A stretch of 64,000 bases of DNA. Source: Escherichia coli. GTDB lineage: Bacteria; Pseudomonadota; Gammaproteobacteria; Enterobacterales; Enterobacteriaceae. The notes under the pieces were generated by a model. The model saw nothing but the letters and a program-made list of their open reading frames with translations, ran no database searches and was not told the DNA's origin. The stretch lies in the NCBI RefSeq assembly GCF_024298765.1, contig NZ_CP101212.1, one strand, 5' to 3'. A program made the position numbers and the translations under genes. This document shows positions 6,159-62,990 of the stretch, one piece after another; the first letter of the stretch is position 1, and each line of letters begins with the position of its first letter.

Positions 6159-7394
6159 GTTAACTCCATTCCACTCGTTTGTTTTTGATAAATATTTTTT
6201 TATTTACTCGTAGTAGTCAACTGAAAAATGCTGTTTTGTTTAACGTTTGTTTACAATGTGGCCGCATGTCGCTTTATTTATTCCCTTTTATGTCAGAATA
6301 TCAGGGGAGTCAGTCAAACCCGGTATGATTACTGCCCCGGTCATCCATGTTCCAGGAAATATCAGGGCATACAGGGTGCTGGTAACTGCGAATAAGGCCC
6401 TGGTCGGACACTTTATGCCGGGAACGTCTGTAACATGGAAACCGGTACCTTCTTCCTGGGTTTATTTTGTTAACTCTTATCTAAAGGGAGACAAAATGGC
6501 CAAATCCTGCGATTATGAAGCAATCAGGGTTTTTATTAGCGTTAATGTCGGCAAATATACCAATAACGCCATTACAGTTAATTATTCAGATAGCGTTTGT
6601 GCGACAAGGCATTACCATTCGACGAAAATAAACTCAGGTGGTTGATATCAGAAATCAACCGTGGCTCCACCTACAAAAAAAGTTGCTGGTTTATAAATCC
6701 CTCCTTTCTGATTAATAAGAAAACTAATAACATATGAGTATAATTACTTGTTCAGATAGGTTAATTATCTTCGTGATTGATATTTATTTGGTTTCAGTAA
6801 AAATGATGTTTTTATTATAAAGTTTATAAATACCAAGTCGGTGGTGTTTATTAGTGTAATGGAGGGGAGTGCGTAAATCGTTACATGTAACACTTCCTTC
6901 CAATAATACTTTATAAATCAATAAATGTATGATTACTTATTTCCTGAAATATCACATATATTGCTATATTTCTTAACGAGATATTCTTATTTTATTGATG
7001 ATTGCATCTCTTTTATTTAATGTAAAGCTTTCTTATTAATCTTCTAATGTATTGCAAAATGGTAGATGCTGAGTAATCAACAGACTTGTATGTAAAGTCA
7101 AGATTAACGTTGCTAAAGCACGCATCAATTTTCTGATAAAAGGATGTGGTTGTTTTTTTCGATAAAAAAAATTCTTGTCTAACCGCTGGTGAAATAAGAT
7201 TATTATTACCCCGGATTAATACTGAGCCTAACAATAGAATACAAAAAAAACAAAATGCTTTAAATAAGGGGAGCACTATAAGTTATCCTCTTTACTTTAT
7301 GCTTACCAACTCATTTTGTTACTTTATAACATAACTCATCTTGCGTTGTAAACAGACTCGTTTTAGTTCCATGCACCTTTTGAGATCGTGACCA

Positions 7395-46715: not shown

Positions 46716-46855
46716 TGTATAATTGGCAATATATGGGGATTCATAGTCATTTCTGAGATAATATACGTTAGGCCTTCTCTCCCGTACGGAAATCACTTGT
46801 TTTCCGTAAATTACCTGAATCTTAATCCCTGAGCTGCGGCGGTAATGACTCCAAC

Positions 46856-47359
46856 TTATTGATAGTGTTTTATGTTCAGATAATGCCCGATGACTTTGTC
46901 ATGCAGCTCCACCGATTTTGAGAACGACAGCGACTTCCGTCCCAGCCGTGCCAGGTGCTGCCTCAGATTCAGGTTATGCCGCTCAATTCGCTGCGTATAT
47001 CGCTTGCTGATTACGTGCAGCTTTCCCTTCAGGCGGGATTCATACAGCGGCCAGCCATCCGTCATCCATATCACCACGTCAAAGGGTGACAGCAGGCTCA
47101 TAAGACGCCCCAGCGTCGCCATAGTGCGTTCACCGAATACGTGCGCAACAACCGTCTTCCGGAGCCTGTCATACGCGTAAAACAGCCAGCGCTGGCGCGA
47201 TTTAGCCCCGACGTATCCCCACTGTTCGTCCATTTCCGCGCAGACGATGACGTCACTGCCCGGCTGTATGCGCGAGGTTACCGACTGCGGCCTGAGTTTT
47301 TTAAATGGCGGAAAATCGTGTTGAGGCCAACGCCCATAATGCGGGCGGTTGCCCGGCAT
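46856..47359 (-). CDS. insB: IS1 InsB
   Basis: 167 aa. Confidence 0.85.
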
Positions 47360-47553
47360 CCAACGCCATTCATGGCCATATCAATGATTTTCTGGTGCGT
47401 ACCGGGTTGAGAAGCGGTGTAAGTGAACTGCAGTTGCCATGTTTTACGGCAGTGAGAGCAGAGATAGCGCTGATGTCCGGCGGTGCTTTTGCCGTTACGC
47501 ACCACCCCGTCAGTAGCTGAACAGGAGGGACAGCTGATAGAAACAGAAGCCAC
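47278..47553 (-). CDS. insA: IS1 InsA
   Basis: 91 aa. Confidence 0.85.
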
Positions 47554-47801
47554 TGGAGCACCTCAAAAACACCATCATACACTAAATCAGTAAGTTGGCA
47601 GCATCACCGGAACTTCAAAACTGCGCAAAACACGCAAATACGCACAAGAAAGTAGGGCTGCGCTTGGAATTCGGAAAATAAACCACATCAAAACTACTTT
47701 TTAGCCAAATAACGTTTGGGAATCACCAGAATGGTGGGACAACAGCGGTTTTAGTGCCCTAAATCGTACGTTTTCATCCAGTTGCCCCTCAAACCCCATG
47801 T

Positions 47802-49139: not shown

Positions 49140-49850
49140 TGCATCGCCTGTAAATTTTTAACTTGTCCTATTTTTGTCATTACCACGTATATACACATGT
49201 ATAACAATTCAGATATCGTTACCAGGATATGCCGCATCAGCGGCATGGAAGGCGGCACTCTGTTGTTTCATATGATACAGGAGTAAAACCGCCGAAGCCC
49301 GGCGTAAGCCGGTACTGATTGATAGATTTCACCTTACCCATCCCCAGCCCTGCCAGACCATACCCGCTTTCAGCCATGAGAGAGCTTCTGTGCGCGGTCG
49401 GAGTGGTCCCGACGAGGGTTTACCCGAAGTCGGGGCGTATCTCCGCGTTAGCGGGCCGTGAGGGCCGCTTACGAGCGTGTACTGAGAACTTCCAGCGAGA
49501 AGACTGACAGCGATGAAGATGTAGTTACAACATTCATAATTAAAAGCGACTCTGTTCCGGCCCGAAGGGCCGGGGCGGGGCCGCTTTTCAGTTATGAGGG
49601 AGGGGCTTTGTGGTTTCAGTTCTGCGCTGGTTCGGGGTTTTTCTGGAGGTTGGTTTTGTGTGTTGTAACTAAAGTGGCTCCGGTTGGGGCCCGCCGTTTA
49701 CGGTGGGAGGTGCATATCTGTCTGTCCACAGGACAGGCAGTGAATAGGTTTTCTTTTTAAATGAATGTAATTAAGTAGTTTAAAGGAGATATAAACAGGT
49801 GTTTAAAAGATACATTGCACCCTGTAAGGGGTCAGTTTGGATATCGAAAA

Positions 49851-52800
49851 TTATTGTACGTTAAGGCTGTTTTTTGACCTTTCGACTTTAGCTGGTCTTA
49901 GCCGACGAAACTTACCAGAAGCCGGTATCCGGTTGCTTTTCCAGATATAATCACCTGTCAGATTGATGTGTTCCCAGCCCAACGGCGACAAATGCGACAG
50001 CAGTTGCTCGTTGATCTTCACCCCTTTACGCTTCAGGGCATCGACCGCTCTTTCCATATAGACGGTATTCCACAGGGATATGGCAGCCGTCAGCAGCGTC
50101 AGTCCACTGGCGCGATAGCTCTGATTTTCCGGTTTTCTGTCCCTGATTTCTCCCAGTCGGTGCATAAATACCGCACGCGCCAGCGCGTTACGGGCTTCGC
50201 CTTTATTCAGCCCCGCCTGTACCCGCCGACGCAGAGCCGGGTCGCGGAACCAGTCGAGCATAAACAGGGTTCGCTCAATGCGGCCAATTTCTCTCAGTGC
50301 TTTGGCAAGTCCGTTTTGCTTGGGATAGCTGGCAAGCTTTTTCAGCATCAGGGATGCCGTCACGGTTCCCTGCTTTATCGAGGTTGCCAGACGCAGCACT
50401 TCACGCCAGTGGATTTCGATCTCTTTCAGATTCAGGCTGGTCGTTGATATCAGTGACTGAAGCGCCGGGTATTTCTCTGCTTTCCCTTTGATAAACAGTT
50501 TTTTGTCGTGGAGATCCCTGATTCGCGGACAGAACGCAAATCCCAACAGATGCATCAGGGCAAAGACATGATCGGTGAAACCAGCGGTATCGGTGTAATG
50601 TTCCCTGATTTCCAGGTCGCTTTCGTGGTACAGCAAGCCATCGAGAACATGGGTTGAATCCCTGACCCGACTGATTATGCAGGTGTAAAACGGGCTGTAT
50701 TGATCCGAAATATGGGTATAAAACTGACGTCCAGGCTCTTGCCCATATTTCGGGTTAACCTGCCCTGCGTAGCGGCCTGAGCTGCCGGTTCTGAAATTTT
50801 GTCCATCTGATGATGACGTTGTTCCGTCTCCCCAAAATGCCGCCAACGGTCTTTTCCCCTGCGCATTTACCAGCTCTGCAAGAGCGGCTGAATAGGTTTC
50901 GTCACGGATGTACCATGCCTGAATATCTTCGAGTGATGATTTGGTGCTCCCGGGGCAGGCTTCTGCCATTTTGGTCAGGCCAAGATTGATGCCATCCGCA
51001 AGAATGGTGGTGAGGAGCAAGCGGGTATCGGGACGGGTAATGTCATTTTTTATATGCGAAAAATGTCGGGTAAACGTCGTCCAGCTGTTTACCTCATCGA
51101 GAATTTCCGTGATTTTAGGTCGCGGTAGCATGCTGTAAACCAGCTCTGCCAGCGGTGAAACCTGCGCCGGAACGCAGTTATCCAGCGGAGAGACTTTTAC
51201 GCCCCTGTCGGATATTTCCACATCGGGCAGTTCACCAAGGGCAGCCATGGCATTGACCTCTTCAAGTCTGGACTGAAGCAGGGTCATACGGCTGGTAATG
51301 TACTCATGATAATCAGCAGATACGGGCAGTGGCAGTGCCGGTGTGAGTTTGTCAAAGTCCTTCTCGGGTATGAGGTAATCATCAAAATTTTTGTAGCGGC
51401 GCGAGCCTTTAACCCAGATATCCCCGGAGCGCAACGCCCCCTTAAGCTCGCTGAGTGCACAAAACTCATAGTACTGCCGGTCAATACCCACAGGTGTAAT
51501 CACCACCTTGCGCCAGCTTTCAGGGACAAACTCAAGCGGCGCTGCCGCCGGAACTTTACGTGACTGCTTCCGGTACATATCCTTGATCACAACCAGTGCA
51601 TCAGCCAGAGGTTGCGCTGCCGGGGTTGCGACTAACTGTAAAGCGGACAACATGCGTGGGGCATATTTCCGTAATGTGCTGTATTTCTCGGTAATAATAT
51701 GCAGCGGGTCAAAATTATTTTTTCTGGCGAGATGGCGTGTTTCATCCAGACTGGCGACAAATTCAGCCCATGGGAGTATGTTTTCTATTGCGAGCCAGGG
51801 ATCGCCACCGGAATCACGGGCATCAGACAGCGCCTGACCGACATCGATGTACTGCCTCAGTTTTGACTGGATCAGCTTTCCGGTCTGCTGAAGGCGCTCA
51901 GCCTGTGTTCGTTTGGCTTTGCTGAAAAGACTATTCAGCATTCGCTCATGCAGCTCAATCACTTCGTCTGTCAGTGTGGCTCTGGCTTCTTCCAGCACGC
52001 ACACCAGGATCGCATGACGCCGGGCAGCTGAAAATCGGGTCAAATCCCGGCTACTCATCTTTCGGCCTTCCCGCGCCAGTTTCAGCAACCGGTTCTGGTG
52101 AATGGTACGATCTATACCTTCAGGTAATGCCAGCGATTCAATGCTGCTGAGCCGATCAAGATGTTGCAGCACGTTCTTACCATTGATTTTACCCGGCGGT
52201 TGCAGAAGCCATGTCAGCCTGGAAGGCTGATTATCTGATGACTCAAGTAAATGATCCAGGGCATCCCTGTGAGCCGGAGTTAACGGGGCATTCAGGGTCT
52301 GAAATACGATTTTATCGCCGCCTGCCATGACTTCAGCACAGGTACGCTCCACGACATCAATCGCGGGGATTATCACGTTGTTCTGCCGGAGATAGACAAG
52401 TAACTCTTCGGCTAGGAGAATGCCTTTATCGGTGCGCGTCGCCATCGATAACAGGTGCGTAATACAGTCCTGCTGTATTTTGCCGGTGAACGCCTTTACG
52501 CCAAGATAGCGGTACAGTTCGGTTAAATGCTCACGCCGGGTCGTATCCCGGCCGGAAAGGTAAGCAGGCCAGAGATCCCCGGTAAGCTTTAGCCTGCTGG
52601 CGATATGCTTCAGCAGCGCATCAGAGGGAGAGATTTTTTTATCCGGGGCAAAGCCGACATTTTTCAGATAGCAAAGAAGGACGGCAAAACCAAAACGGCT
52701 GGCGGGTTTACGGTGAGCACTGATAAGCGCCAGATCATGCTCACTGAAATAGGCCATTCGGGTCAGCGTTAACTCATCGTCCGGTAATGCCAGTAATGAT

Positions 52801-52880
52801 TCTCTTTCCGACAGAGAAAGAATCTGCCTCCTTGCCATATAGTTTTCCTCATAAATTATTCGATGCGTTATTTTTAACAA
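49851..52880 (-). CDS. tnpA: Tn3-family transposase TnpA
   Basis: 1009 aa; C-terminal region with GDGTTSSSDGQ...HYTDTAGFTDHVFAL motifs; 3' end runs into the IR. Confidence 0.85.
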   Translation of the reverse strand: MLKITHRIIYEENYMARRQILSLSERESLLALPDDELTLTRMAYFSEHDLALISAHRKPASRFGFAVLLCYLKNVGFAPDKKISPSDALLKHIASRLKLTGDLWPAYLSGRDTTRREHLTELYRYLGVKAFTGKIQQDCITHLLSMATRTDKGILLAEELLVYLRQNNVIIPAIDVVERTCAEVMAGGDKIVFQTLNAPLTPAHRDALDHLLESSDNQPSRLTWLLQPPGKINGKNVLQHLDRLSSIESLALPEGIDRTIHQNRLLKLAREGRKMSSRDLTRFSAARRHAILVCVLEEARATLTDEVIELHERMLNSLFSKAKRTQAERLQQTGKLIQSKLRQYIDVGQALSDARDSGGDPWLAIENILPWAEFVASLDETRHLARKNNFDPLHIITEKYSTLRKYAPRMLSALQLVATPAAQPLADALVVIKDMYRKQSRKVPAAAPLEFVPESWRKVVITPVGIDRQYYEFCALSELKGALRSGDIWVKGSRRYKNFDDYLIPEKDFDKLTPALPLPVSADYHEYITSRMTLLQSRLEEVNAMAALGELPDVEISDRGVKVSPLDNCVPAQVSPLAELVYSMLPRPKITEILDEVNSWTTFTRHFSHIKNDITRPDTRLLLTTILADGINLGLTKMAEACPGSTKSSLEDIQAWYIRDETYSAALAELVNAQGKRPLAAFWGDGTTSSSDGQNFRTGSSGRYAGQVNPKYGQEPGRQFYTHISDQYSPFYTCIISRVRDSTHVLDGLLYHESDLEIREHYTDTAGFTDHVFALMHLLGFAFCPRIRDLHDKKLFIKGKAEKYPALQSLISTTSLNLKEIEIHWREVLRLATSIKQGTVTASLMLKKLASYPKQNGLAKALREIGRIERTLFMLDWFRDPALRRRVQAGLNKGEARNALARAVFMHRLGEIRDRKPENQSYRASGLTLLTAAISLWNTVYMERAVDALKRKGVKINEQLLSHLSPLGWEHINLTGDYIWKSNRIPASGKFRRLRPAKVERSKNSLNVQ

Positions 52881-53099
52881 AAATGGTTATCGCATAAGGG
52901 TATACCCTGACACCATAATCTAAACGTGACGGCACACAATGAACGACATAGCCTATATGCGATAGATTAAATGCAATAACCTAAATGCGGTAATGCGGTG
53001 AAAAAATGTTCATCAGCACTTATTTAAGGGCATAGACGGAAGATCAGTTCACCGATCGGGCAAAAGAGATGCTGGAGCAGTTTGTTTAGGAGCGGGGGC

Positions 53100-53410
53100 A
53101 TAAAATAGCCAGTTACTACCGGGAGAATATCAGCGGTACAAAACTTGACCGACCGGAACTGGGTCGCTTACTGATGGACAGTCACCGCAATGATATTTTG
53201 CTGGTCGAGCAAATTGACCGCCAGCGCCAAAAGCAGGGAGTTGAACTCGCACATACGCTGGGTAAATATCAGGGAAAACAGGTCGCTCAGGAACGGCATC
53301 AAAAGGTACTTTACTACCGGCAGGTCAAGAAAGAAACGGCAGATGCAACAGGGTACAGCACCTCCCAGATATGCCACATTCAGGCACTGTACCGACAATC
53401 AGAATCATGA
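53100..53410 (+). pseudogene. Serine resolvase (tnpR) remnant
   Basis: Fragmentary translation ...DSHRNDILLVEQIDRQRQ... resembles resolvase core but no intact ORF. Confidence 0.35.
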
Positions 53411-53537
53411 GACTTTGGTTAAGCAGGTATGCAGAGCAGAATTTATAATCTATTTCATTCAGACTGATTAAATGGATTACAGAAGCTAAAGGGTCTTCTT
53501 TGTTCAACATGAAACCAGAAGACCCTTACTATTATTA

Positions 53538-54373
53538 TTAAAAAAGCAATTGGGTCAGATACCCCATAAGTATGGCCATACCCAGGATTACTGTCAGAAA
53601 AGCGACTATCATAGGCATTCTGAACATTGATTTAAGCAGTATTACTTCTGTCAAACTCGCTCCAGCACTACCGATTATCAAGGCCATTAATGCCCCCAGG
53701 CCCATTCCTTTAGTCATCAGCACTGATGCAAGTGGTATCACTGCCTCTGCGCGGATATACAACGGAATACCAACAACTGCACTCAGCGGTATGGCTAAGG
53801 GATTATCTGCTCCGGCATGAGCTGCAATCCACTCTGAAGGGATAAAGCCATAAATAAATGAACCTATTAATACACTTAACAAAAGATAAGGCAGAACATC
53901 CTTAAACTGCTGTAAGGCATCTTTCATAGCTAACTTTATTGGGCCAGAGGTGGTATTCGTTGTGAGATTCACATTGCCCAGATTCTCGCTGCTGCAACAG
54001 CTAACAGCTGGTTGTTCAGATGATATTGATGAACAACACGCTGATACGTTCTGCTCGTTCTTTACCGTCCTTAAGTTAATTATGGGGTTCGCTGATGAAG
54101 TACAGCAACTCGTTTTTAAAGGCAATTGAGTCGAGCTAGTGCTGCAACAACTGGAACCCGCCGACGTTTTTACCGAAGCTTCGGAATCATCGCATTTCGT
54201 GGTGCAACCACTTGATGCTGAGTTTTTGTGATCAACAATATGACGTTCAAATCCTAGTAAATCCAATACGATACTGGCAAGGACTGAGACACCGGCAGCG
54301 ATGATCGCGTACAACAAAGTTACTTTCCAGCCAAAGGTAACCCACATTAACCCCACGATAATGGGATTAAGCG
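53538..54373 (-). pseudogene. ArsP-like permease, C-terminal part (downstream of IS66 insertion)
   Basis: Continues in frame from the N-terminal part across the 8-bp duplication (…SPLLN|PIIVGLMWVTFG…); contains a Cys/Ser-rich loop with repeated vicinal CC. Confidence 0.55.
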
Positions 54374-54402
54374 TAAGCGGCTCGTCAGAACCGTATTGAT
54401 AT

Positions 54403-55974
54403 TTACTGAGAGCTCAGATCAACTTTCCAGGGCAACAGATCGCGTACCCGGTTTGCCGGCCAGTCCTGGATATGTTCAATGACGTAACGCAGCCACTTTT
54501 CTGGCTCCACATTGTTCAGACGGCATGTGCCGATCAGCGAGTACAACACCGCCGCATGTTCACCACCGCTGTCGGAACCCGCGAACATCCAGTTTTTCCG
54601 GCCTACGGCCACTCCCCGTAAGGCGTTCTCTGCGATGTTGTTGTCGATTTCCACCCAGCCATTACTGCAGTACACGTTCAGTGCATCCCACTGTTTCAGC
54701 AGGTATGCGAACGCTTTTGCCGTATCTGAGTGACGCGACAGTGTTTTCATCTGTTGCTGTATCCAGTCATACAGTGACTGCATCAGTGGCGCGGCTCTGG
54801 CTTTTCTTGCCGCCAGACGCTGTTCTGCTGAACAGCCCCGGACCTCTGCCTCGATGGCATACAGTTCACCGATACGCTGCAGGGCTTCCGTGGTGATGTC
54901 GGTGGGCGCTCTTGCATGCACATCGTGGATTTTTCTCCGGGCATGAGCCATACACGCGGCTTCCGTTATTCTGCCGGATTCGTATAACACCCGGTAACCA
55001 CCGTAAGCATCGGCCTGAAGCACACCGCTGTAACCGGCCAGGTGATTTTGTGGATGGATACCTTTCCGGTCCGGACTGTACGCGAACCAGACCGCCGGGG
55101 GCATCTGTGAACCGGCGTTGCGATCATCACGGACGTAGACCCACAGCCGGGCTGTCCGGGTTTTACCGCTGCCCGGCTCCTGGACCGGGACGGGGATATC
55201 ATCGGCATGGACTTTACCGGGCATCAGCACATACTGGCGCAGGACGTCATACAGCGGCTCCAGCAGTTCAGCAACAGCACCTGTCCAGCGCCCCAGTGTG
55301 GCACGGCTCAGCTCCACGCCCTGGCGACGGTATATTTCTGACTGGCGGTATAACGGCAGATGGTCTGCATATTTCCCGGTGACAACATGGGCCAGAAGCC
55401 CCGCTCCGGCATAACTGCGTGCAATGGGTTTTGAAGGCACCGGTGCCTGCACGATATGGTCGCACCGGCAACAGGCCTGTTTCGGACGTTGTGTTTCGAT
55501 AACCTTAAAGGCACTGCTGATAAGCTCCAGTTGCTCTGACACATCACATCCCAGTGGACTGAGTTCACCACCACAGGCCGGACAGCATTCCTCTTCCGGC
55601 CGGATGACCCGGGGTTCACGGGGAAGTGAAGCCGGTAACGGTTTACGGGCTGAAGACTGGCGCAGGGGGGATGGCAGTACCGGGTCATATTGCTCACCCA
55701 GCGTTTCTGCCATTTCTTCCTGAAGTGCGCTGATTCGCTCCTGTGCTTCCTGTATCTGCCGTTCGGTTTTTGCGCGAAGTTTTTCTGAGCTTTTACCGAA
55801 CTGCATACGCTGCAGTTTCGCAACCAGCGCCTTCAGCCGGTTGATTTCGGAAGCATAAGCCGCCACCCGCTGTGAGAGCAGGCGGTTGTATTCGGCCATC
55901 TGGCGGATGGTGTCCTGTTGCGTCTGCAACAGTGCCTGCAGGCGGGCATTCTCATGAGCAAGTGAGGTGTCCAT
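54403..55974 (-). CDS. IS66-family transposase TnpC
   Basis: 523 aa with zinc-finger-like CPACGG...CRCDH and DDE domain. Confidence 0.85.
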
Positions 55975-55993
55975 ATCCTCACTTTACAACGGG

Positions 55994-56341
55994 TTATATA
56001 CGGATTCCAGCGCGTTCCGTTCGTTTCGGGTGCTTCCAGTCGATGCCCTCGAGAAGCATGGATAACTGAGCCGGAGTAAGGTGCACCTTGCCGTCACGGG
56101 TGACTGGCCAGACGAAGCGGCCCCGCTCCAGGCGTTTGGTGAAGAGGCACAGTCCGTCACTGTCAGCCCACAACACTTTTATCTGGTCACCCCGGCGTCC
56201 GCGGAAGATGAACAGGTGTCCGGAGAACGGGTCATCCTTCAGGACGTTCTGAACTTTTGAGGCCAGGCCGTTAAAGCCATTTCGCATATCGGTGATACCT
56301 GCAACCAGCCAGATACGCGAACCTGCAGGGAGAGATATCAT
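55994..56341 (-). CDS. IS66-family TnpB
   Basis: 115 aa. Confidence 0.8.
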   Translation of the reverse strand: MISLPAGSRIWLVAGITDMRNGFNGLASKVQNVLKDDPFSGHLFIFRGRRGDQIKVLWADSDGLCLFTKRLERGRFVWPVTRDGKVHLTPAQLSMLLEGIDWKHPKRTERAGIRI

Positions 56342-57018
56342 CAGTGGCTGCTCCCTTTTATTTCGCGGATAAGTGTCTGTAATAACGCCGGCGTCAGTTT
56401 ACCTTTAAGCCTGAGAGTTCCGGCCGGCAGAACCAGCTCACAACACAGACTGTCGGACGGTGTATTTATCTGCTCTGGTTCCTGTGCGGGGGCCGGGATT
56501 TTATTATCCGGCTCCGGCGTTAACGTCACGGGAAGCAGTGCCGGCATATTTTTTCCGGAAGGCAGCAGGCCACCTTTCCGGTATTGATGGCGCCAGTTGA
56601 AGAGCAGGTTATCGTTGATTCCGTTTTCCCGGGCGATCTGCGCCACACAGGCTCCGGGCTGCAGTGACTGCTCCACTAAGGCGATTTTAAACTCATAAGG
56701 GAAGTTGGGCCGCCGGGGACGTTTTTTTACCACGGGGGCTTCGGATATAACGGTGCTTTCAGGACGTACGACTGGTACCGTGGAAAATTGTCCGTAAAGG
56801 CAGGCATCAAGTTCCTGCTCCGACATGCCTGCGGGCAAAGGCCACGAAAGGCCAGCTCTCCGAAAGCGCACGAACATACTACAAACTGTTGATTTTGATA
56901 CACCCAGGCGACGCCCGGCCACAACCCGGGGTAAATGTTCTTCAAAGTGAAGACGTAAAGCTTCAGTGATCCAGGTCCGGTGTTTCATACGATAGTGTCC
57001 ATTAAAAATGATGGACAT
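56341..57018 (-). CDS. IS66-family accessory protein TnpA (orf1)
   Basis: 225 aa, HTH-containing. Confidence 0.7.
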   Translation of the reverse strand: MSIIFNGHYRMKHRTWITEALRLHFEEHLPRVVAGRRLGVSKSTVCSMFVRFRRAGLSWPLPAGMSEQELDACLYGQFSTVPVVRPESTVISEAPVVKKRPRRPNFPYEFKIALVEQSLQPGACVAQIARENGINDNLLFNWRHQYRKGGLLPSGKNMPALLPVTLTPEPDNKIPAPAQEPEQINTPSDSLCCELVLPAGTLRLKGKLTPALLQTLIREIKGSSH

Positions 57019-57071
57019 TATTTTTGTAGAGCCGGAGGAAACAGACCAGACGGTTTAAATGAGCCGGTTAC

Positions 57072-57396
57072 GATTAAGCAACGGTGAAACAAACAAAAAA
57101 GTGAGTGTCGGACCAAACCCTGCTTTCGCCGACAACAACCCTCGTAGCATTGGAATTGTTGAGCAACTACAGAAAGGGGTAACGGCTCCCAACAACGAGG
57201 CCAGCAGGTAGCCTTTTCCTTTTTTCGCCCCTATCAATTGCTGGATTTTATGGTCCGGGACCTTTTGCCTTATCAGGCTCACACCGGCACTGATGACAAT
57301 AAACAGCAAAGATAGCTCGACGGCCAAAAACAAAAACATCTCTGCGGCATCTTGCAGCATAGAAATCCAACTATTCATACTAAACCCTCTTGACAA
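57072..57396 (-). pseudogene. ArsP-like permease, N-terminal part with TPFCSCSTIP motif
   Basis: 108 codons ending at the IS66 junction. Confidence 0.55.
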
Positions 57397-57483
57397 AATC
57401 TACGTTTCTAGAATAATCGAAATATAATTCTGGTCAAGATATTTCTGGTATTATCGAAATATCATTAGACAGAGGGTTGTCAC

Positions 57484-57807
57484 ATGCAACTGGAAGAAGT
57501 AGCTAAAGCACTAAAAGAGCTGGGTCACCCGACCCGTTTGTTCATATTCAAACATCTTGTAAAAGCTGGAGAACAAGGTTTGCCTGTAGGTGAATTGCAA
57601 AAGCAGCTTGGCATTCCCTCATCAACGTTAAGTCATCATATTTCAGCCCTGGTATCAGTAGGGCTCGTCACACAAAACCGGGAGAGTCGAACGCTCATGT
57701 GTGTCTCTCAATACGAAATACTGGAAGCTATCATCGAATTCTTACGTGAAGAGTGCTGTGTAAACAGTAAAACAGATGTTGCGGAACACGCTGGCAAAAA
57801 TGGATAA
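57484..57807 (+). CDS. ArsR/SmtB-family metalloregulatory repressor
   Basis: 107 aa winged-HTH protein divergent from the permease gene; dyad tcgaaatat...atatttc in the shared intergenic region. Confidence 0.7.
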   Translation: MQLEEVAKALKELGHPTRLFIFKHLVKAGEQGLPVGELQKQLGIPSSTLSHHISALVSVGLVTQNRESRTLMCVSQYEILEAIIEFLREECCVNSKTDVAEHAGKNG

Positions 57808-57908
57808 GTAACCGGAAAACTCATAACTGTCATGATTGACGAAAGCTGCATCGGGTGATGCTGCCAACTTACTGATTTAGTGTATGATGGTGTTTTTGAG
57901 GTGCTCCA

Positions 57909-58184
57909 GTGGCTTCTGTTTCTATCAGCTGTCCCTCCTGTTCAGCTACTGACGGGGTGGTGCGTAACGGCAAAAGCACTGCCGGACACCAGCGCTATCT
58001 CTGCTCTCACTGCCGTAAAACATGGCAACTGCAGTTCACTTACACCGCTTCTCAACCCGGTACGCACCAGAAAATCATTGATATGGCCATGAATGGCGTT
58101 GGATGCCGGGCAACTGCCCGCATTATGGGCGTTGGCCTCAACACGGTTTTACGTCACTTAAAAAACTCAGGCCGCAGTCGGTAA
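57909..58184 (+). CDS. insA: IS1 InsA
   Basis: 91 aa. Confidence 0.85.
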
Positions 58185-58606
58185 CCTCGCGCATACAACC
58201 GGGCAGTGATGTGATTGTCTGCGCTGAAATGGACGAACAGTGGGGCTACGTCGGTGCTAAATCACGTCAGCGCTGGCTGTTTTACGCGTATGACAGGATA
58301 CGGAGGACAGTTGTGGCGCACGTTTTCGGTGAACGCACTCTGGCCACACTGGAGCGTCTTCTGAGCCTGCTGTCACCCTTTGACGTGGTGATATGGATGA
58401 CGGATGGCTGGCCGCTGTATGAATCCCGCCTGAAGGGAAAGCTGCACGTAATCAGCAAGCGATATACGCAGCGAATTGAGCGGCATAACCTGAATCTGAG
58501 GCAGCACCTGGCACGGCTGGGACGGAAGTCGCTGTCGTTCTCAAAATCGGTGGAGCTGCATGACAAAGTCATCGGGCATTATCTGAACATAAAACACTAT
58601 CAATAA
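58103..58606 (+). CDS. insB: IS1 InsB
   Basis: 167 aa. Confidence 0.85.
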
Positions 58607-58999
58607 GTTGGAGTCATTACCCGCATGATTCAGCAGATAAATCCTTGAAAGCAGGTACTCAGCCCTCAGTGAACAGAATAAGTCAGCGTAATGTACTTTA
58701 GTGCTGACCACGTGCTCTGTATGATACAGAATCTATCTACTATAAACGAAAATACAGCACGATCAATGCTCACACTCTATATGGGACGTTCGTACCTGGA
58801 CATGATTATCTGTGTTCAATGTCCCCGCATGACCGTCTTAACATCCAGAATATTACGTTTCCAAAAAAACCAGAAATGATAAAAAATGAGCTTAACGTAC
58901 AATAATTTTCGATATCCAAACTGACCCCTGTAAGGCTGGCGCCTGGCGCTTTATGACATGAACGGTTGTAACCTTATGGGGAAGTCCATTGCAGTTAAA

Positions 59000-59008
59000 T
59001 GTGGATAA
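59000..59008 (-). promoter_or_regulatory. DnaA box (TTATCCACA on minus strand), probable RepFIIA oriR
   Basis: tgtggataa on plus strand, downstream of repA1 in the position expected for oriR. Confidence 0.4.
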
Positions 59009-59111
59009 GCAAAATTCCCCGTCTGTGAGGCGTGTTTTGTATCAAAAACAGGGGGGGCCAGATGCACCAGAAGGGTAAGCGTGCAGCAAGAACCGTATTG
59101 ACGGGGATGTG

Positions 59112-60650
59112 TTATTCAGTCGGCAGTGCTACGCGCCAGGGGAGCAGTTCGCCGACCCGGTTTATCGGCCAGTCGGCTATGACGTCAAGGACATAGCGGA
59201 GGTAGCTTTCTGGCTCCACTCCGTTCAGTTTGCACGTCCCGATCAGGCTGTACAGCAGCGCTCCCCGCTCTCCTCCATGATCCGAACCGAAGAACAGGTA
59301 GTTTTTGCGGCCCAGACTGACCATCCGCAACGCATTTTCAGCGATGTTATTGTCCGCCTCAGCCCAGCCATCATCTGCATAGTACGTCAGCGCCGGCCAC
59401 TGGTTCAGGGCGTATGCGAACGCTTTCGCCAGTTCTGAGTGTCGCGACAGGGTTTTCATCTTTTCACGCAGCCAGCTTTCCAGGGATTTCAGCAGCGGTT
59501 TCGTTTTCAACTGACGTTCGGCAAGGCGCTGCTCCGCCGTCATTCCCCTTATCTCTGCCTCGATGGCGTACAGTTCGCCGATCCGTTTCAGCGCTTCCTC
59601 CGTCAGGGCTGACGGGGTGCGAACGTGCACATCGTGGATTTTACGGCGGGCGTGAGCCCAACAGGCGGCTTCCGTTATCCGGCCATCCCGGTACAGCTCG
59701 TTGAACCCGGCGTATGCATCCGCCTGCAGTACACCACTGAACCCCGCAAGATGGGTCTGCGGATGGATGCCTTTTCTGTCCGGGCTGTAAGCGAACCACA
59801 CCGCCGGCGCCAGCGTTGACCCGGCGTTACGGTCGTCACGAACGTAGGTCCATAACCGCCCGGTCTTCGTTTTCTTATTGCCTGGCAACAGCACCGGGAC
59901 AGGCGTGTCATCAGCATGGAGCTTACCGTCAGTCAGCACATAGTCCTGAAGCGCTTCTTCCAGCGGTGACAGTAGCCGGCAGCATGCATCCACCCAGCCC
60001 GACAGCAGTGAACGACTCAGCTCCACGCCCTGGCGGCCGTACATTTCAGACTGGCGGTACAGCGGGGTGTGCTCTGCATACTTTGAGATCAGCACGCGGG
60101 CCAGCAGCCCCGGTCCTGCGATACCCCGCTCGATGGGCCGTGAAGGCGCGGGGGCCTGCACGATGGCATCGCACTGAGTACAGGCATGCTTTTCACGTAC
60201 AGTCCGGATAACCCGGAAGGCGCTGCGCATCAGCTCCAGCTGTTCGGCGGCATCCTCACCCAGATAGCTCAGCGAGCCTCCACATTCCGGGCAGCATGAC
60301 GCTGCCGGCAGCAGCCGTTTTTCATCGCGGGGGAGTGATTCGGGGAACGGTTTGCGGGTGCGGGTTTGACGCAGCGGGCGCTGCACGGCCGGGTCGTCAA
60401 CCCGACCGGTAAGGGTATCACTTTCTTTCTGAAGTGCCTTCAGGTCAGCTTCCATCTGTGCGATACGACGGGAGACTTTTTCCGAGCGGCTGCCGAAGTT
60501 CATCCGGCGCAGCTTATCCAGCTGTGCCTGCAGATGGTCTATTTCGCGTTCACGCTCGTTCAGCTTTTCCTGCAGGGCACGGTTCAGCGCCTCCTGTTCG
60601 GCAAGGAGACGTTTCAGTGCATTGATATCGTCAGGAAGTGAGCTGCTCAT
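59112..60650 (-). CDS. IS66-family transposase TnpC
   Basis: 512 aa, paralogous to 54403..55974. Confidence 0.85.
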
Positions 60651-60698
60651 ACCGGGTATATTACCAGGCTCATTCAGCGTCGACCAGGATAAAGAGGC

Positions 60699-61046
60699 TT
60701 ACAACATAGTCAGGGACGTAAGCAGTCTTTTAGGCTGCCGCCAGTCGATACCTTCCAGCAGCATCGCCAGCTGTGCCGGTGTGAGGAACACTTTGCCATC
60801 CCGGGCTGACGGCCAGGCGAAGCGGCCGCGCTCCAGCCGTTTGGTCAGCAGACACAGTCCATCGCCGGTAGACCAGAGGAGCTTTACCTGACTGCCATTA
60901 CGCCCACGGAAGATAAAAACGTGACCTGACATCGGATCGTCTTTCAGCGTCGTCTGCACCTTTGCCGCCAGGCCGTTGAAGCCGTTTCTCATATCGGTGA
61001 TGCCAGCGACCAGCCAGATCTTTGTCCCTGATGGTAATGGGATCAA
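60699..61046 (-). CDS. IS66-family TnpB
   Basis: 115 aa. Confidence 0.8.
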   Translation of the reverse strand: MIPLPSGTKIWLVAGITDMRNGFNGLAAKVQTTLKDDPMSGHVFIFRGRNGSQVKLLWSTGDGLCLLTKRLERGRFAWPSARDGKVFLTPAQLAMLLEGIDWRQPKRLLTSLTML

Positions 61047-61447
61047 CGTTTGAGCTCCCGTATCAGCAGGTTCAGGATATTTTCACTGATGGCACCATTC
61101 AGACGGAGTGATCCGTGCCGGAACGTCACTTCACAGCTGATATTGAGTGATTCAGGTGTCGCAGTAGCTACAGGTTGTGACCGGGGGGAGGTTGTAGGGA
61201 CAACATCTTCGGCATCAAGTGTTATCGGGAGCAGCTCAGGCACGTTGTTTTCTGTTGTTGAAGGAGGACGTAGTTTTCCTTCGCGCCAGTACTGGCGCCA
61301 CTTGAACAGCAAATTATCGTTGATCCCATGCTCACGAGCGAGTTGCGCTACGGAGATCTCTGGTCGATGCGAGAGTTCAACCATTTTGATTTTGAACTCA
61401 ACGGGATAATTAGGGCTTTTTTTACGCACTGCGGTTAATGATTTCAT
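61043..61447 (-). CDS. IS66-family accessory protein TnpA (orf1)
   Basis: 134 aa. Confidence 0.7.
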   Translation of the reverse strand: MKSLTAVRKKSPNYPVEFKIKMVELSHRPEISVAQLAREHGINDNLLFKWRQYWREGKLRPPSTTENNVPELLPITLDAEDVVPTTSPRSQPVATATPESLNISCEVTFRHGSLRLNGAISENILNLLIRELKR

Positions 61448-61645
61448 GGATAGCGTCCACCATATTTGGTGTCCACTATTCTCTCAGGAATTTCAGGATC
61501 TGCCAGACGGTGCTGAGACGACGCTTACCCAGAAGGTGGATGATGAGGTTGTTTTTTGTATGAGGTGCTGCTTTTTTGTTCGCTGGCAGGCTTCAGGCGT
61601 GCGAATGCCTCCGGTGCGGGCCGGATTATTCAGAAGAGGTCACTT

Positions 61646-62503
61646 TCAGGGGGAAGCTGTGGCCAGCCGGCTGTAATTACGGTTACGTGACAGAATCATG
61701 CGCTCTTTCACACGACGCTCCACTTCGCGTTTTACCGCCTCACGATTGGCAGTGAAGCGCCCTTCCGAGATTTCACGCGTCAGCTGCCGTTTCACCAGGG
61801 TGACGATATCCTGACGTTCCCTGTTCGCATCACGACGCGCACGGGCACGCTTTATTCCACGGGACTTAAGCTCTGTCTGGTAACTGCGGAAACGCTCACG
61901 CACAAAACGCCAGGCTTTCGCTATCAGTTCATCCATACCCAGGGTATCCAGCCCCTGCTTTTTGCGCTGTCTGTTTTCCCATTCAACACGACTGCGGCGC
62001 GCAGCAACCACTGCATCCTCAGACACATCAAGGGCGGCAAATAACGCCGGTGTGAACGTGATATCGGTCGGAATGTAGCACCCGATAAGCGGATCATATT
62101 CCGTCTGGTAGGTAATCAGTCCCAGCTCTGCAAGGAACGTCAAGGCTCGGGAGGCCCGGGTGATGGAGAGTTTTCCGGCAGCAGACTCCGTCGCCAGTCC
62201 GCACTCAATGGCCAGCGTAGTGATGGAGCACTGGACGCGGTTGGCCAGCGGGTCATAGTGAAAACACAGCCCCTGCAGCAGCGCATCAATAGCCCGGCGA
62301 CGCAGTACCGGTGGCATGCGCCGACGCAGTCCCTTCGAACGGGCATGTGCCACATGAATGGCGAAATCAAAACGGGAGGTGAAGCCCACCGCCTTTTCCA
62401 TCAGTTTTTCGCAGAACTTCAGCGTTCCGGCACCTTCACGGGGTGTGAACACCGGATTCGGATTTTTAACCTGTGAATAGTATTTTTGAAGGAGATCAGC
62501 CAT
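61646..62503 (-). CDS. repA1: RepFIIA replication initiator RepA1
   Basis: 285 aa from [24 protein letters not shown]...; recognised as IncFII RepA1. Confidence 0.85.
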
Positions 62504-62990
62504 GTCCCCCTCCAACACTATTCCCCCTCCTACGGGCGGTAACTAGCTCGTCTGGGCCGACACGTAAAGTTTCGAACATATCTGGTCTGAACCAGATGGT
62601 TCCTCCATCAAAAGCGATGAGATGAAGATCATTATCAAGAGTTTTGAGGGCTCTCCAAACACGAGTGTATGAACCTCCACTACAAACTGAAAGCTCTTTA
62701 ACAGATAAGTTAACTTTGTTCGTATCAGGGATGTAGTGTGCGCACATTACTTGTACGAGGGAAACATAAAAACTAACCATCGACGCGCTGATTTTATTTT
62801 TACGTTTGCCATGCGCTATTGCAAGCAAACCTCTGATGAAGATCAGATGCTTGAAGGAGTCAAAATGAGCCCTTTTCTGGAGAAGGCTGCAAAACGGGTG
62901 AGGATACTTGCTGGAATCAATGTGAAGATCTGATTCAATCCCACCCGCTATTACTGAATGTGTTTCATGATTAGCCACACCATCCTGCAC
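62496..62990 (-). CDS. Leader-position ORF homologous to the N-terminal half of RepA1; stop overlaps repA1 ATG (ATGGCTGA)
   Basis: Hand alignment: FCSLLQKRA vs FCEKLMEKA; [29 protein letters not shown] vs [29 protein letters not shown]; [11 protein letters not shown] vs [11 protein letters not shown]. Confidence 0.4.

Follow-up and report, generated by a model that had tools for sequence, protein, structure and literature searches.

Which compound is handled by a divergently transcribed ArsR-family regulator and permease that travel together on a transposon, and what has become of the pair in the copy described here? The question was raised by a stretch of Escherichia coli DNA (64,000 nucleotides of contig NZ_CP101212.1, assembly GCF_024298765.1, referred to as the window), in which a Tn3-family transposon with this pair as cargo (positions 49828-58928) is split by an insertion sequence of the IS66 family. 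An initial annotation, made from the letters alone, had described a transposon with 38-bp inverted repeats, a TGTAA duplication, a full tnpA and a decayed resolvase, together with a permease that carries the motif TPFCSCSTIP and repeated vicinal cysteine pairs in a central loop, and had taken the latter as a hint of soft-metal or metalloid binding. These structural features were all recovered (Table 1), the transposon coordinates proving exact, and the metal(loid) reading was strengthened and narrowed towards arsenic, because the permease belongs to ArsP_1, the regulator aligns with the As(III)-binding cysteines of AfArsR, and ortholog pairs lie beside ars operons. With somewhat better than even confidence, the cargo is read as an inducible efflux module for trivalent (organo)arsenicals that has been inactivated in this copy. 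The point of interest is the function of a conserved ArsP-family branch in which a poly-cysteine loop is combined with a two-cysteine ArsR.

The permease, its regulator and their orthologs

The permease gene was restored in silico by excision of the IS66-family element together with one copy of its 8-bp duplication GATTAAGC, and a single continuous open reading frame of 377 amino acids was obtained (...FVSPLLNPIIVGLMW...), in agreement with the earlier claim that the frame runs on across the duplication. The accompanying term "in-frame disruption" was appropriate insofar as excision restores the frame, but not for the gene as it stands, which ends after residue 102; since the element sits after codon 102, the copy in the window makes no functional permease. 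The restored protein was then searched against permease families, as had been proposed, and was identified as a full-length member of Pfam ArsP_1 (PF03773; 180.4 bits, gathering score 32.3, E=5.7e-53, residues 10-374). Only two NCBIfam models were matched, both below cutoff: NF033936, the SO_0444 Cu/Zn efflux family (116.1 bits, cutoff 300, E=1.9e-33), and NF040736, SaoE (87.8 bits, cutoff 325).

The motif TPFCSCSTIP was located at residues 67-76 and is invariant in all 14 orthologs that were aligned (from Salmonella, Proteus, Enterobacter, Escherichia, Citrobacter and Aeromonas). F69 and C70 do not vary at all among 85 diverse homologs, and T67, P68, S71, C72, S73 and P76 are present in at least 90% of them; the C[ST]C motif is kept in 73 of 95 diverse full-length family representatives. 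According to a published survey, every ArsP homolog encoded in an ars operon has a C(S/T)C motif, which is preceded by "tPF" in cluster 2 (PMC4435449); TPFCSC of the permease corresponds to this motif. The central loop (residues 140-250, 111 residues) accounts for 10 of the 12 cysteines of the protein and contains 23 serines and 12 threonines. Its four vicinal cysteine pairs (residues 175/176, 189/190, 212/213 and 225/226), accompanied by a CxxxC arrangement of C156 and C160, compare with approximately 0.01 pairs expected over this length at a typical cysteine frequency of 1%. Across the 14 orthologs the membrane core is near-invariant; the loop varies in length and sequence with retention of cysteine pairs, two pair positions being kept in at least 90% of the sequences. 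At least two such pairs were counted in 18 of the 95 representatives, the others having histidine-rich (up to 32 His) or short loops. No DNA repeat beneath the loop was detected with Tandem Repeats Finder, and recent repeat expansion was ruled out as its origin on this ground. Two further clades of plasmid-borne PF03773 permeases, approximately 44% and 34% identical and annotated only as "permease", were encountered in Enterobacteriaceae.

A model of the permease was built with AlphaFold2 from an alignment of 85 sequences (mean predicted local distance difference test, pLDDT, 81.5; predicted template modelling score, pTM, 0.77). The pLDDT was above 89 in the membrane core and approximately 40 in the central loop, which is predicted to be disordered. 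In each half of the model, a long and a short helix are followed by two broken helices and a last, unbroken position is taken by one more helix; the CSC motif is placed at the first break. No related solved structure was found by sequence search or with Foldseek. Lysine plus arginine counts, averaged over the 85 sequences, amounted to 4.3 for the loop at 38-56 and 2.6 for that at 346-353, and the loop at 276-293 is acidic; these charges fit an inverted topology in which the central loop would probably be cytoplasmic, whereas a plain topology of 4+4 helices would place it in the periplasm.

That the permease is paired with a divergent ArsR-family regulator, as initially annotated, was borne out by the score of the latter against the NCBIfam model HTH_metalloreg (NF033788; 63.2 bits, cutoff 55); Pfam HTH_20 and HTH_5 were matched as well, and the protein shows the winged-helix ArsR/SmtB fold. 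Its best solved relative is AfArsR from Acidithiobacillus ferrooxidans (6J05, E=1.8e-11). The segment EECCVNS of the regulator falls on ENCCHGT of AfArsR, so that Cys91-Cys92, where the C-terminal helix ends, are in register with Cys95-Cys96. Cys73 and the cysteine pair are invariant in six regulator orthologs, and in none of the six is a cysteine found downstream of the pair, at the position of AfArsR Cys102, the third ligand of a three-coordinate As(III) site. In AfArsR, As(III) is bound through Cys95, Cys96 and Cys102 (type 2 site); the Shewanella protein SpArsR, which is devoid of Cys102, responds to methylarsenite and not to arsenite (PMC11868830). The short region between regulator and permease contains two ATTTC-N10-GAAAT palindromes, overlapped by sigma-70-like promoters on both strands. 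The palindrome blocks are invariant from Aeromonas to Escherichia and the flanking bases are variable; the palindromes are very probably the operators of the regulator.

Regulator and permease were found together in every context seen. Approximately 40% of complete E. coli chromosomes possess an ortholog pair, and the module has matches at about 2,250 places on chromosomes, with approximately 84% nucleotide identity. In the two E. coli chromosomes examined (NZ_CP031922.1 and NZ_CP070157.1), the gene order is gor-dinQ-arsR-arsB-arsC, then the pair, a hypothetical gene and slp; the permease comprises 333 amino acids, and the annotation of the two products gives no more than "permease" and "ArsR/SmtB family transcription factor". 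The pair lies directly 3' of arsR-arsB-arsC on the E. fergusonii chromosome, after arsRDABC in a prophage-like context in Citrobacter, and within an ars island on the Proteus mirabilis plasmid CP118636.1 (5516-14232 of the stretch examined), where its neighbours are a second ArsR, a TehA/SLAC1-like channel and a molybdopterin oxidoreductase, followed by arsC, arsB and arsA. On the transposon the permease has only its own ArsR beside it, and on the Aeromonas chromosome the pair stands alone. A 56%-identical relative with 16 cysteines on a metagenomic contig likewise has a divergent ArsR. This repeated adjacency to ars genes is the strongest functional clue and points to arsenic. As a side observation, the oxidoreductase of CP118636.1 consists of three subunits (an 850-amino-acid catalytic, an Fe-S and an NrfD-like subunit), and this part of the plasmid may be an island for arsenate respiration or a related process.

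The plasmid-type module was present in 647 of 72,556 PLSDB plasmids, uninterrupted in 616 of them, mainly from E. coli (400), Salmonella (185) and Klebsiella (33), and in 337 of 5,426 complete E. coli genomes. Chicken, turkey, duck or swine are the source of many of these plasmids, and the transposon occurs in identical form, and commonly, on ColV/IncF plasmids.

Proposed function and competing explanations

As an arsenical efflux module, the pair would operate as follows. The regulator would occupy the two palindromes and repress both divergent genes until a trivalent arsenical bridged Cys91-Cys92, upon which it would leave the DNA. The inducer would likely be an organoarsenical in need of just two thiol ligands. 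Methylarsenite and reduced aromatic arsenicals, for example roxarsone(III), are the likeliest candidates, and arsenite is a possible one. The arsenical would be exported by the permease at the expense of the membrane potential, with the CSC motif serving as a membrane-embedded thiol binding site, and the disordered, probably cytoplasmic poly-cysteine loop would capture the substrate or hand it over. The module would then be an accessory organoarsenical/arsenite exporter of the type found beside arsRBC in Escherichia, mobilised onto plasmids of poultry and livestock bacteria.

Several points weigh against this interpretation. Cys73 could be a third ligand, which makes selectivity for methylarsenite (MAs(III)) over As(III) uncertain. 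The matches to the SO_0444 and SaoE models, although below cutoff, show that metal exporters occur within the wider family, and the Aeromonas ortholog does not adjoin ars genes. Plasmid homologs are listed only as "permease", none as arsP and none with a resistance-gene prediction, and no transport or induction experiment on this clade was found in the searched literature.

An SO_0444-like efflux of soft metals (Cu, Zn, Cd or Hg), in which cations would be bound by the loop and sensed by the regulator through Cys73, Cys91 and Cys92, was considered unlikely. The SO_0444 family does provide the best NCBIfam match of the permease, followed by SaoE, and the CSC signature is common to both families (selenocysteine replacing it in some members); the central loop is cysteine-rich in some family representatives and histidine-rich in others, as in metal transporters, and a sibling lineage of the transposon is located among metal-resistance genes. 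Against this, the permease remains far under the cutoffs of both metal families (116 vs 300 and 88 vs 325 bits), and the closest solved relative of the regulator is an arsenic sensor with its cysteine pair in register. The regulator has no cysteine in the DNA-binding region, the location of the As(III) site in R773 ArsR, and, judged from its sequence, no His/Asp-rich alpha5 metal site. Moreover, in four independent contexts the pair lies beside ars genes, and in none beside cop, czc, znt or mer. The same synteny speaks against a thiol-reactive substrate other than arsenic (persulfide or sulfite, organotin or another electrophile), handled after the manner of BigR/YgaV-type ArsR regulators, a proposal that was rated highly unlikely even though YgaV (E=3.7e-8) and BigR (E=4e-7) come next after AfArsR among solved relatives of the regulator, the C-terminal cysteine of YgaV aligns with Cys92, and the Aeromonas pair is found away from ars genes. 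Sensors of the BigR type have one cysteine in the N-terminal and one in the C-terminal helix; the regulator lacks the N-terminal one, and its weak match to the NCBIfam BigR model (38 bits) lies far under the cutoff of 155.

Least credence was given to the notion that the cargo is unselected, decaying baggage on plasmids and the IS66 insertion one step of its erosion. In favour of it, the resolvase of the transposon is dead already, its IS1 lacks a target duplication, the permease is disrupted in the window, and E. coli hosts often possess a chromosomal ortholog. Neutral decay is, however, difficult to reconcile with 616 uninterrupted copies among 647 plasmids, with the near-invariant membrane core and the promoter palindromes conserved across genera, and with a disruption encountered in this window only among all records searched.

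If organoarsenical export proved correct, a function would be assigned to a pair that lies beside arsRBC in approximately 40% of complete E. coli genomes and on a transposon in more than 600 plasmids. The ColV/IncF virulence plasmids of farm-animal bacteria would be linked to past feed additives of the roxarsone type, with a possible route of co-selection, and the cysteine-pair loop together with the predicted ArsB/DASS-like fold would offer a testable mechanism for the structurally unsolved ArsP family. A wider picture is put forward tentatively and with considerable doubt: the pair may represent an unexplored ArsP branch, in which a cytoplasmic, disordered poly-(Cys-Cys) "antenna" would collect trivalent organoarsenicals and feed them to the CSC site at a re-entrant hairpin under the control of a two-Cys, methylarsenite-selective ArsR. 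The two genes would be the standard but overlooked fourth and fifth genes of the Escherichia ars locus, and a resolvase-less Tn3-family transposon would have spread them, driven by arsenical feed additives, to ColV and other IncF plasmids in E. coli and Salmonella from poultry and livestock.

The transposon, its insertions and its surroundings

The features of the transposon are collated in Table 1. It is a 6.4-kb element of the Tn3 family, of an unnamed lineage, and adjoins the IncFII replication region in a virulence plasmid of the ColV type (iro and cvaAB are present in the window). Its terminal repeats start with GGGG and have the length of about 38 bp usual in the family. In the IncF plasmid pCREC-544_1 the empty target (...CACCCTGTAAGGCTGGCGCC...) runs through uninterrupted with TGTAA occurring once, so the insertion and its 5-bp duplication are demonstrated and not merely inferred. 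The left flank has matches in thousands of IncF plasmids. After removal of the IS66-family element, the transposon was identical to the copy in pVM01 at 6394 of 6394 positions; that copy occupies another site, flanked by TTGTA, which indicates that the element moved as a unit. No name or description of the transposon or of its gene pair was found in the searched literature. Transposon and genes are already contained, under generic annotation, in hundreds of database records, and the architecture is ordinary for the Tn3, IS66 and IS1 families.

Table 1. Features of the transposon and of the elements inserted in it (window coordinates).
Feature	Position	Strand	Basis or remark
Left target duplication TGTAA	49823..49827		single TGTAA in empty site of pCREC-544_1
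Left 38-bp terminal inverted repeat (IRL), GGGGTCAGTTTGGATATCGAAAATTATTGTACGTTAAG	49828..49865	+	38/38 vs right repeat
tnpA, Tn3-family DDE transposase, 995 aa from ATG	49851..52838	-	Pfam and NCBIfam
tnpA-tnpR intergenic region, presumed res	52839..53005		between divergent tnpA and tnpR; ~94% identical to sibling transposon
tnpR pseudogene, serine resolvase remnant	53006..53410	+	conceptual translation matches Pfam Resolvase, E=5.4e-12
Permease gene, 3' part (~residue 100 to 377 and stop, one duplication copy)	53538..54372	-	Cys-rich loop and second membrane half
8-bp duplication GATTAAGC, left copy	54365..54372
IS66-family element, ISCro1-like, 2699 bp	54373..57071	-	Pfam ORF matches, terminal repeats, 8-bp duplication
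IS66 tnpC	54403-55974	-
IS66 tnpB	55994-56341	-
IS66 tnpA	56341-57018	-
8-bp duplication GATTAAGC, right copy	57072..57079
Permease gene, 5' part (residues 1-102, TPFCSCSTIP)	57072..57378	-	ORF
Divergent promoter/operator region, 105 bp, two ATTTC-N10-GAAAT palindromes	57379..57483
Palindrome 1	57401-57426		arms 6/8
Palindrome 2	57438-57463		perfect GATATTTC-N10-GAAATATC
arsR-family regulator, 107 aa, invariant Cys73 and vicinal Cys91-Cys92	57484..57807	+	NCBIfam, PDB relative, ortholog alignment
IS1, 768 bp, inside transposon	57854..58621	+	no target duplication, flanks GCTGCATCG / CGCATGATT
Non-coding remnant, IS1 to right repeat	58622..58890		no ORF, no protein similarity
Right 38-bp terminal inverted repeat (IRR)	58891..58928	-	38/38 vs left repeat
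Right target duplication TGTAA	58929..58933		direct flank and empty-site comparison

The transposase is complete, as had been noted, and scores well above the cutoff of the family model NF033527 (transpos_Tn3; 1129 bits, cutoff 500); Pfam DDE_Tnp_Tn3 (E=5e-148) and DUF4158 were also matched. Its open reading frame extends to 52880 if counted from a TTG. The product is annotated as WP_000124023.1 in pVM01, its lineage is present at 95% identity or more in approximately 600 among the best 5,000 PLSDB records, and no specific name for it is given in the annotations. The resolvase was confirmed to be decayed. Its remnant, in the 660-bp gap between tnpA and the permease gene, was compared with the intact resolvase of a sibling transposon (described below): residues 1-72 are 93% identical and are interrupted by stops at the catalytic Ser10 (YLRA*TEDQ) and at Q28, residues 73-145 (73 codons) are deleted in frame, and residues 146-208 are 76% identical. 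A small thioredoxin-like gene 3' of the permease (gap 52880-53538) was considered and ruled out, the gap being filled by this pseudogene. The intergenic region upstream of tnpR is presumed, from its position and its similarity to the sibling, to act as the res site; a functional module for cointegrate resolution (resolvase and res) is nevertheless missing, and the element is in this respect a decayed derivative.

The element in the permease gene has the three genes, the terminal repeats and the 8-bp duplication of the IS66 family. Its ends read GTAAGCGGCTC and GTAACCGGCTC, the repeats starting with GTAA, and its open reading frames, all three intact, contain the Pfam domains HTH_Tnp_1, TnpB_IS66 and DDE_Tnp_IS66 in addition to zf-IS66 and LZ. 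Elements annotated as ISCro1 family in E. coli genomes match the insertion-sequence part of the junction query at approximately 97-98%. The junction with the permease gene itself was found neither in 5,426 complete E. coli genomes nor in any PLSDB record. Given the perfect duplication, the three intact reading frames, the identity of the 6394 flanking bp to uninterrupted copies and the absence of the junction elsewhere, the conclusion that the insertion is recent, and so far unique, is well supported; its importance does not go beyond showing that something happened recently to this one plasmid.

The IS1 inside the transposon, an old insertion overlooked in the initial annotation, is present with identical sequence in the copy of pVM01. 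Because the two copies are differently sited, the element has undergone at least two transpositions as a unit with the IS1 and the dead resolvase already in it. A second IS1 lies in inverted orientation at 46841-47608 (741 of 768 positions identical to that at 57854-58621), likewise without target duplication. The two bracket pemIK, a gene for a CPBP protease and most of the transposon, and inversion or deletion between them is therefore possible. An exchange of flanks between the two was considered and rejected, since neither direct nor swapped repeats were found at the four IS1 ends.

To the right of the transposon, at a distance of 141 bp, a second and different element of the IS66 family was located (59075-61527, 2453 bp; region 59067-61535), with approximately 71-74% identity to the first over aligned repeat blocks. 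It has an 8-bp duplication of its own, CCAGAAGG, and its empty site is visible in pCREC-544_1. The IncFII gene repA occupies 61646-62518 on the minus strand, and the transposon and the second IS66-family element both lie in the short stretch downstream of it (58929-62518), which, by comparison with R1 and R100, may be the IncFII origin or cis-acting region. A DnaA-box-like sequence, TGTGGATAA, is found at 59000-59008, 72 bp from the end of the transposon, and is separated from repA by 2.45 kb through the second element. Should the stretch indeed have that role, the FII replicon may be out of action, and replication may depend on another replicon of the plasmid.

Comparison with known systems

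The characterised member of the family, ArsP of Campylobacter jejuni (TC 2.A.119), exports MAs(III) and roxarsone(III) and does not export As(III) (PMC6205960). It shares PF03773 and the membrane-embedded C(S/T)C motif with the permease of the window, orthologs of which lie beside ars operons, and a poultry-associated host background is found on both sides. The 111-residue loop with four cysteine pairs is, in contrast, a feature of the clade of the window that is absent from many family members, and the gene is placed under its own divergent ArsR and not inside an ars operon. The regulator resembles SpArsR in its two-Cys state, without a downstream cysteine at the position of Cys102, but differs from both AfArsR and SpArsR by the additional invariant Cys73 in the wing region, and its identity to AfArsR is moderate. 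With SO_0444 and SaoE the permease has the superfamily and the conserved CSC motif in common, the alignment to the SO_0444 model spanning residues 16-376; it is set apart from them by its low scores and by neighbours that are ars and not metal genes. The likeness to the hairpin transporters ArsB and DASS (INDY) is one of predicted fold only, as no sequence similarity is detectable and the permease has approximately 300 structured residues, compared with 430-540.

With respect to the transposon, TnAs3 and ISPa38 are the nearest named relatives and have in common with it a full-length Tn3-family DDE transposase, 38-bp repeats starting with GGGG and 5-bp duplications; since their transposases are only approximately 55-56% identical in amino acid sequence to that of the window, the latter was assigned to a separate lineage. 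A much closer sibling of approximately 6.9 kb is carried by the Enterobacter hormaechei plasmid pFJMB80169_1 (NZ_AP025831.1, 5111-12011 of the stretch examined). The terminal repeats agree at 46-47 of 48 bases, nucleotide identity amounts to 94.5% over tnpA, res and the 5' end of tnpR, and the order of inverted repeat, cargo, tnpR, divergent tnpA and inverted repeat is the same. The sibling differs in its intact resolvase of 211 amino acids and in its cargo, frmR-frmA-VOC-fghA (formaldehyde detoxification), which takes the place of arsR, permease and IS1; the lineage therefore swaps small cassettes that combine a regulator with detoxification genes.

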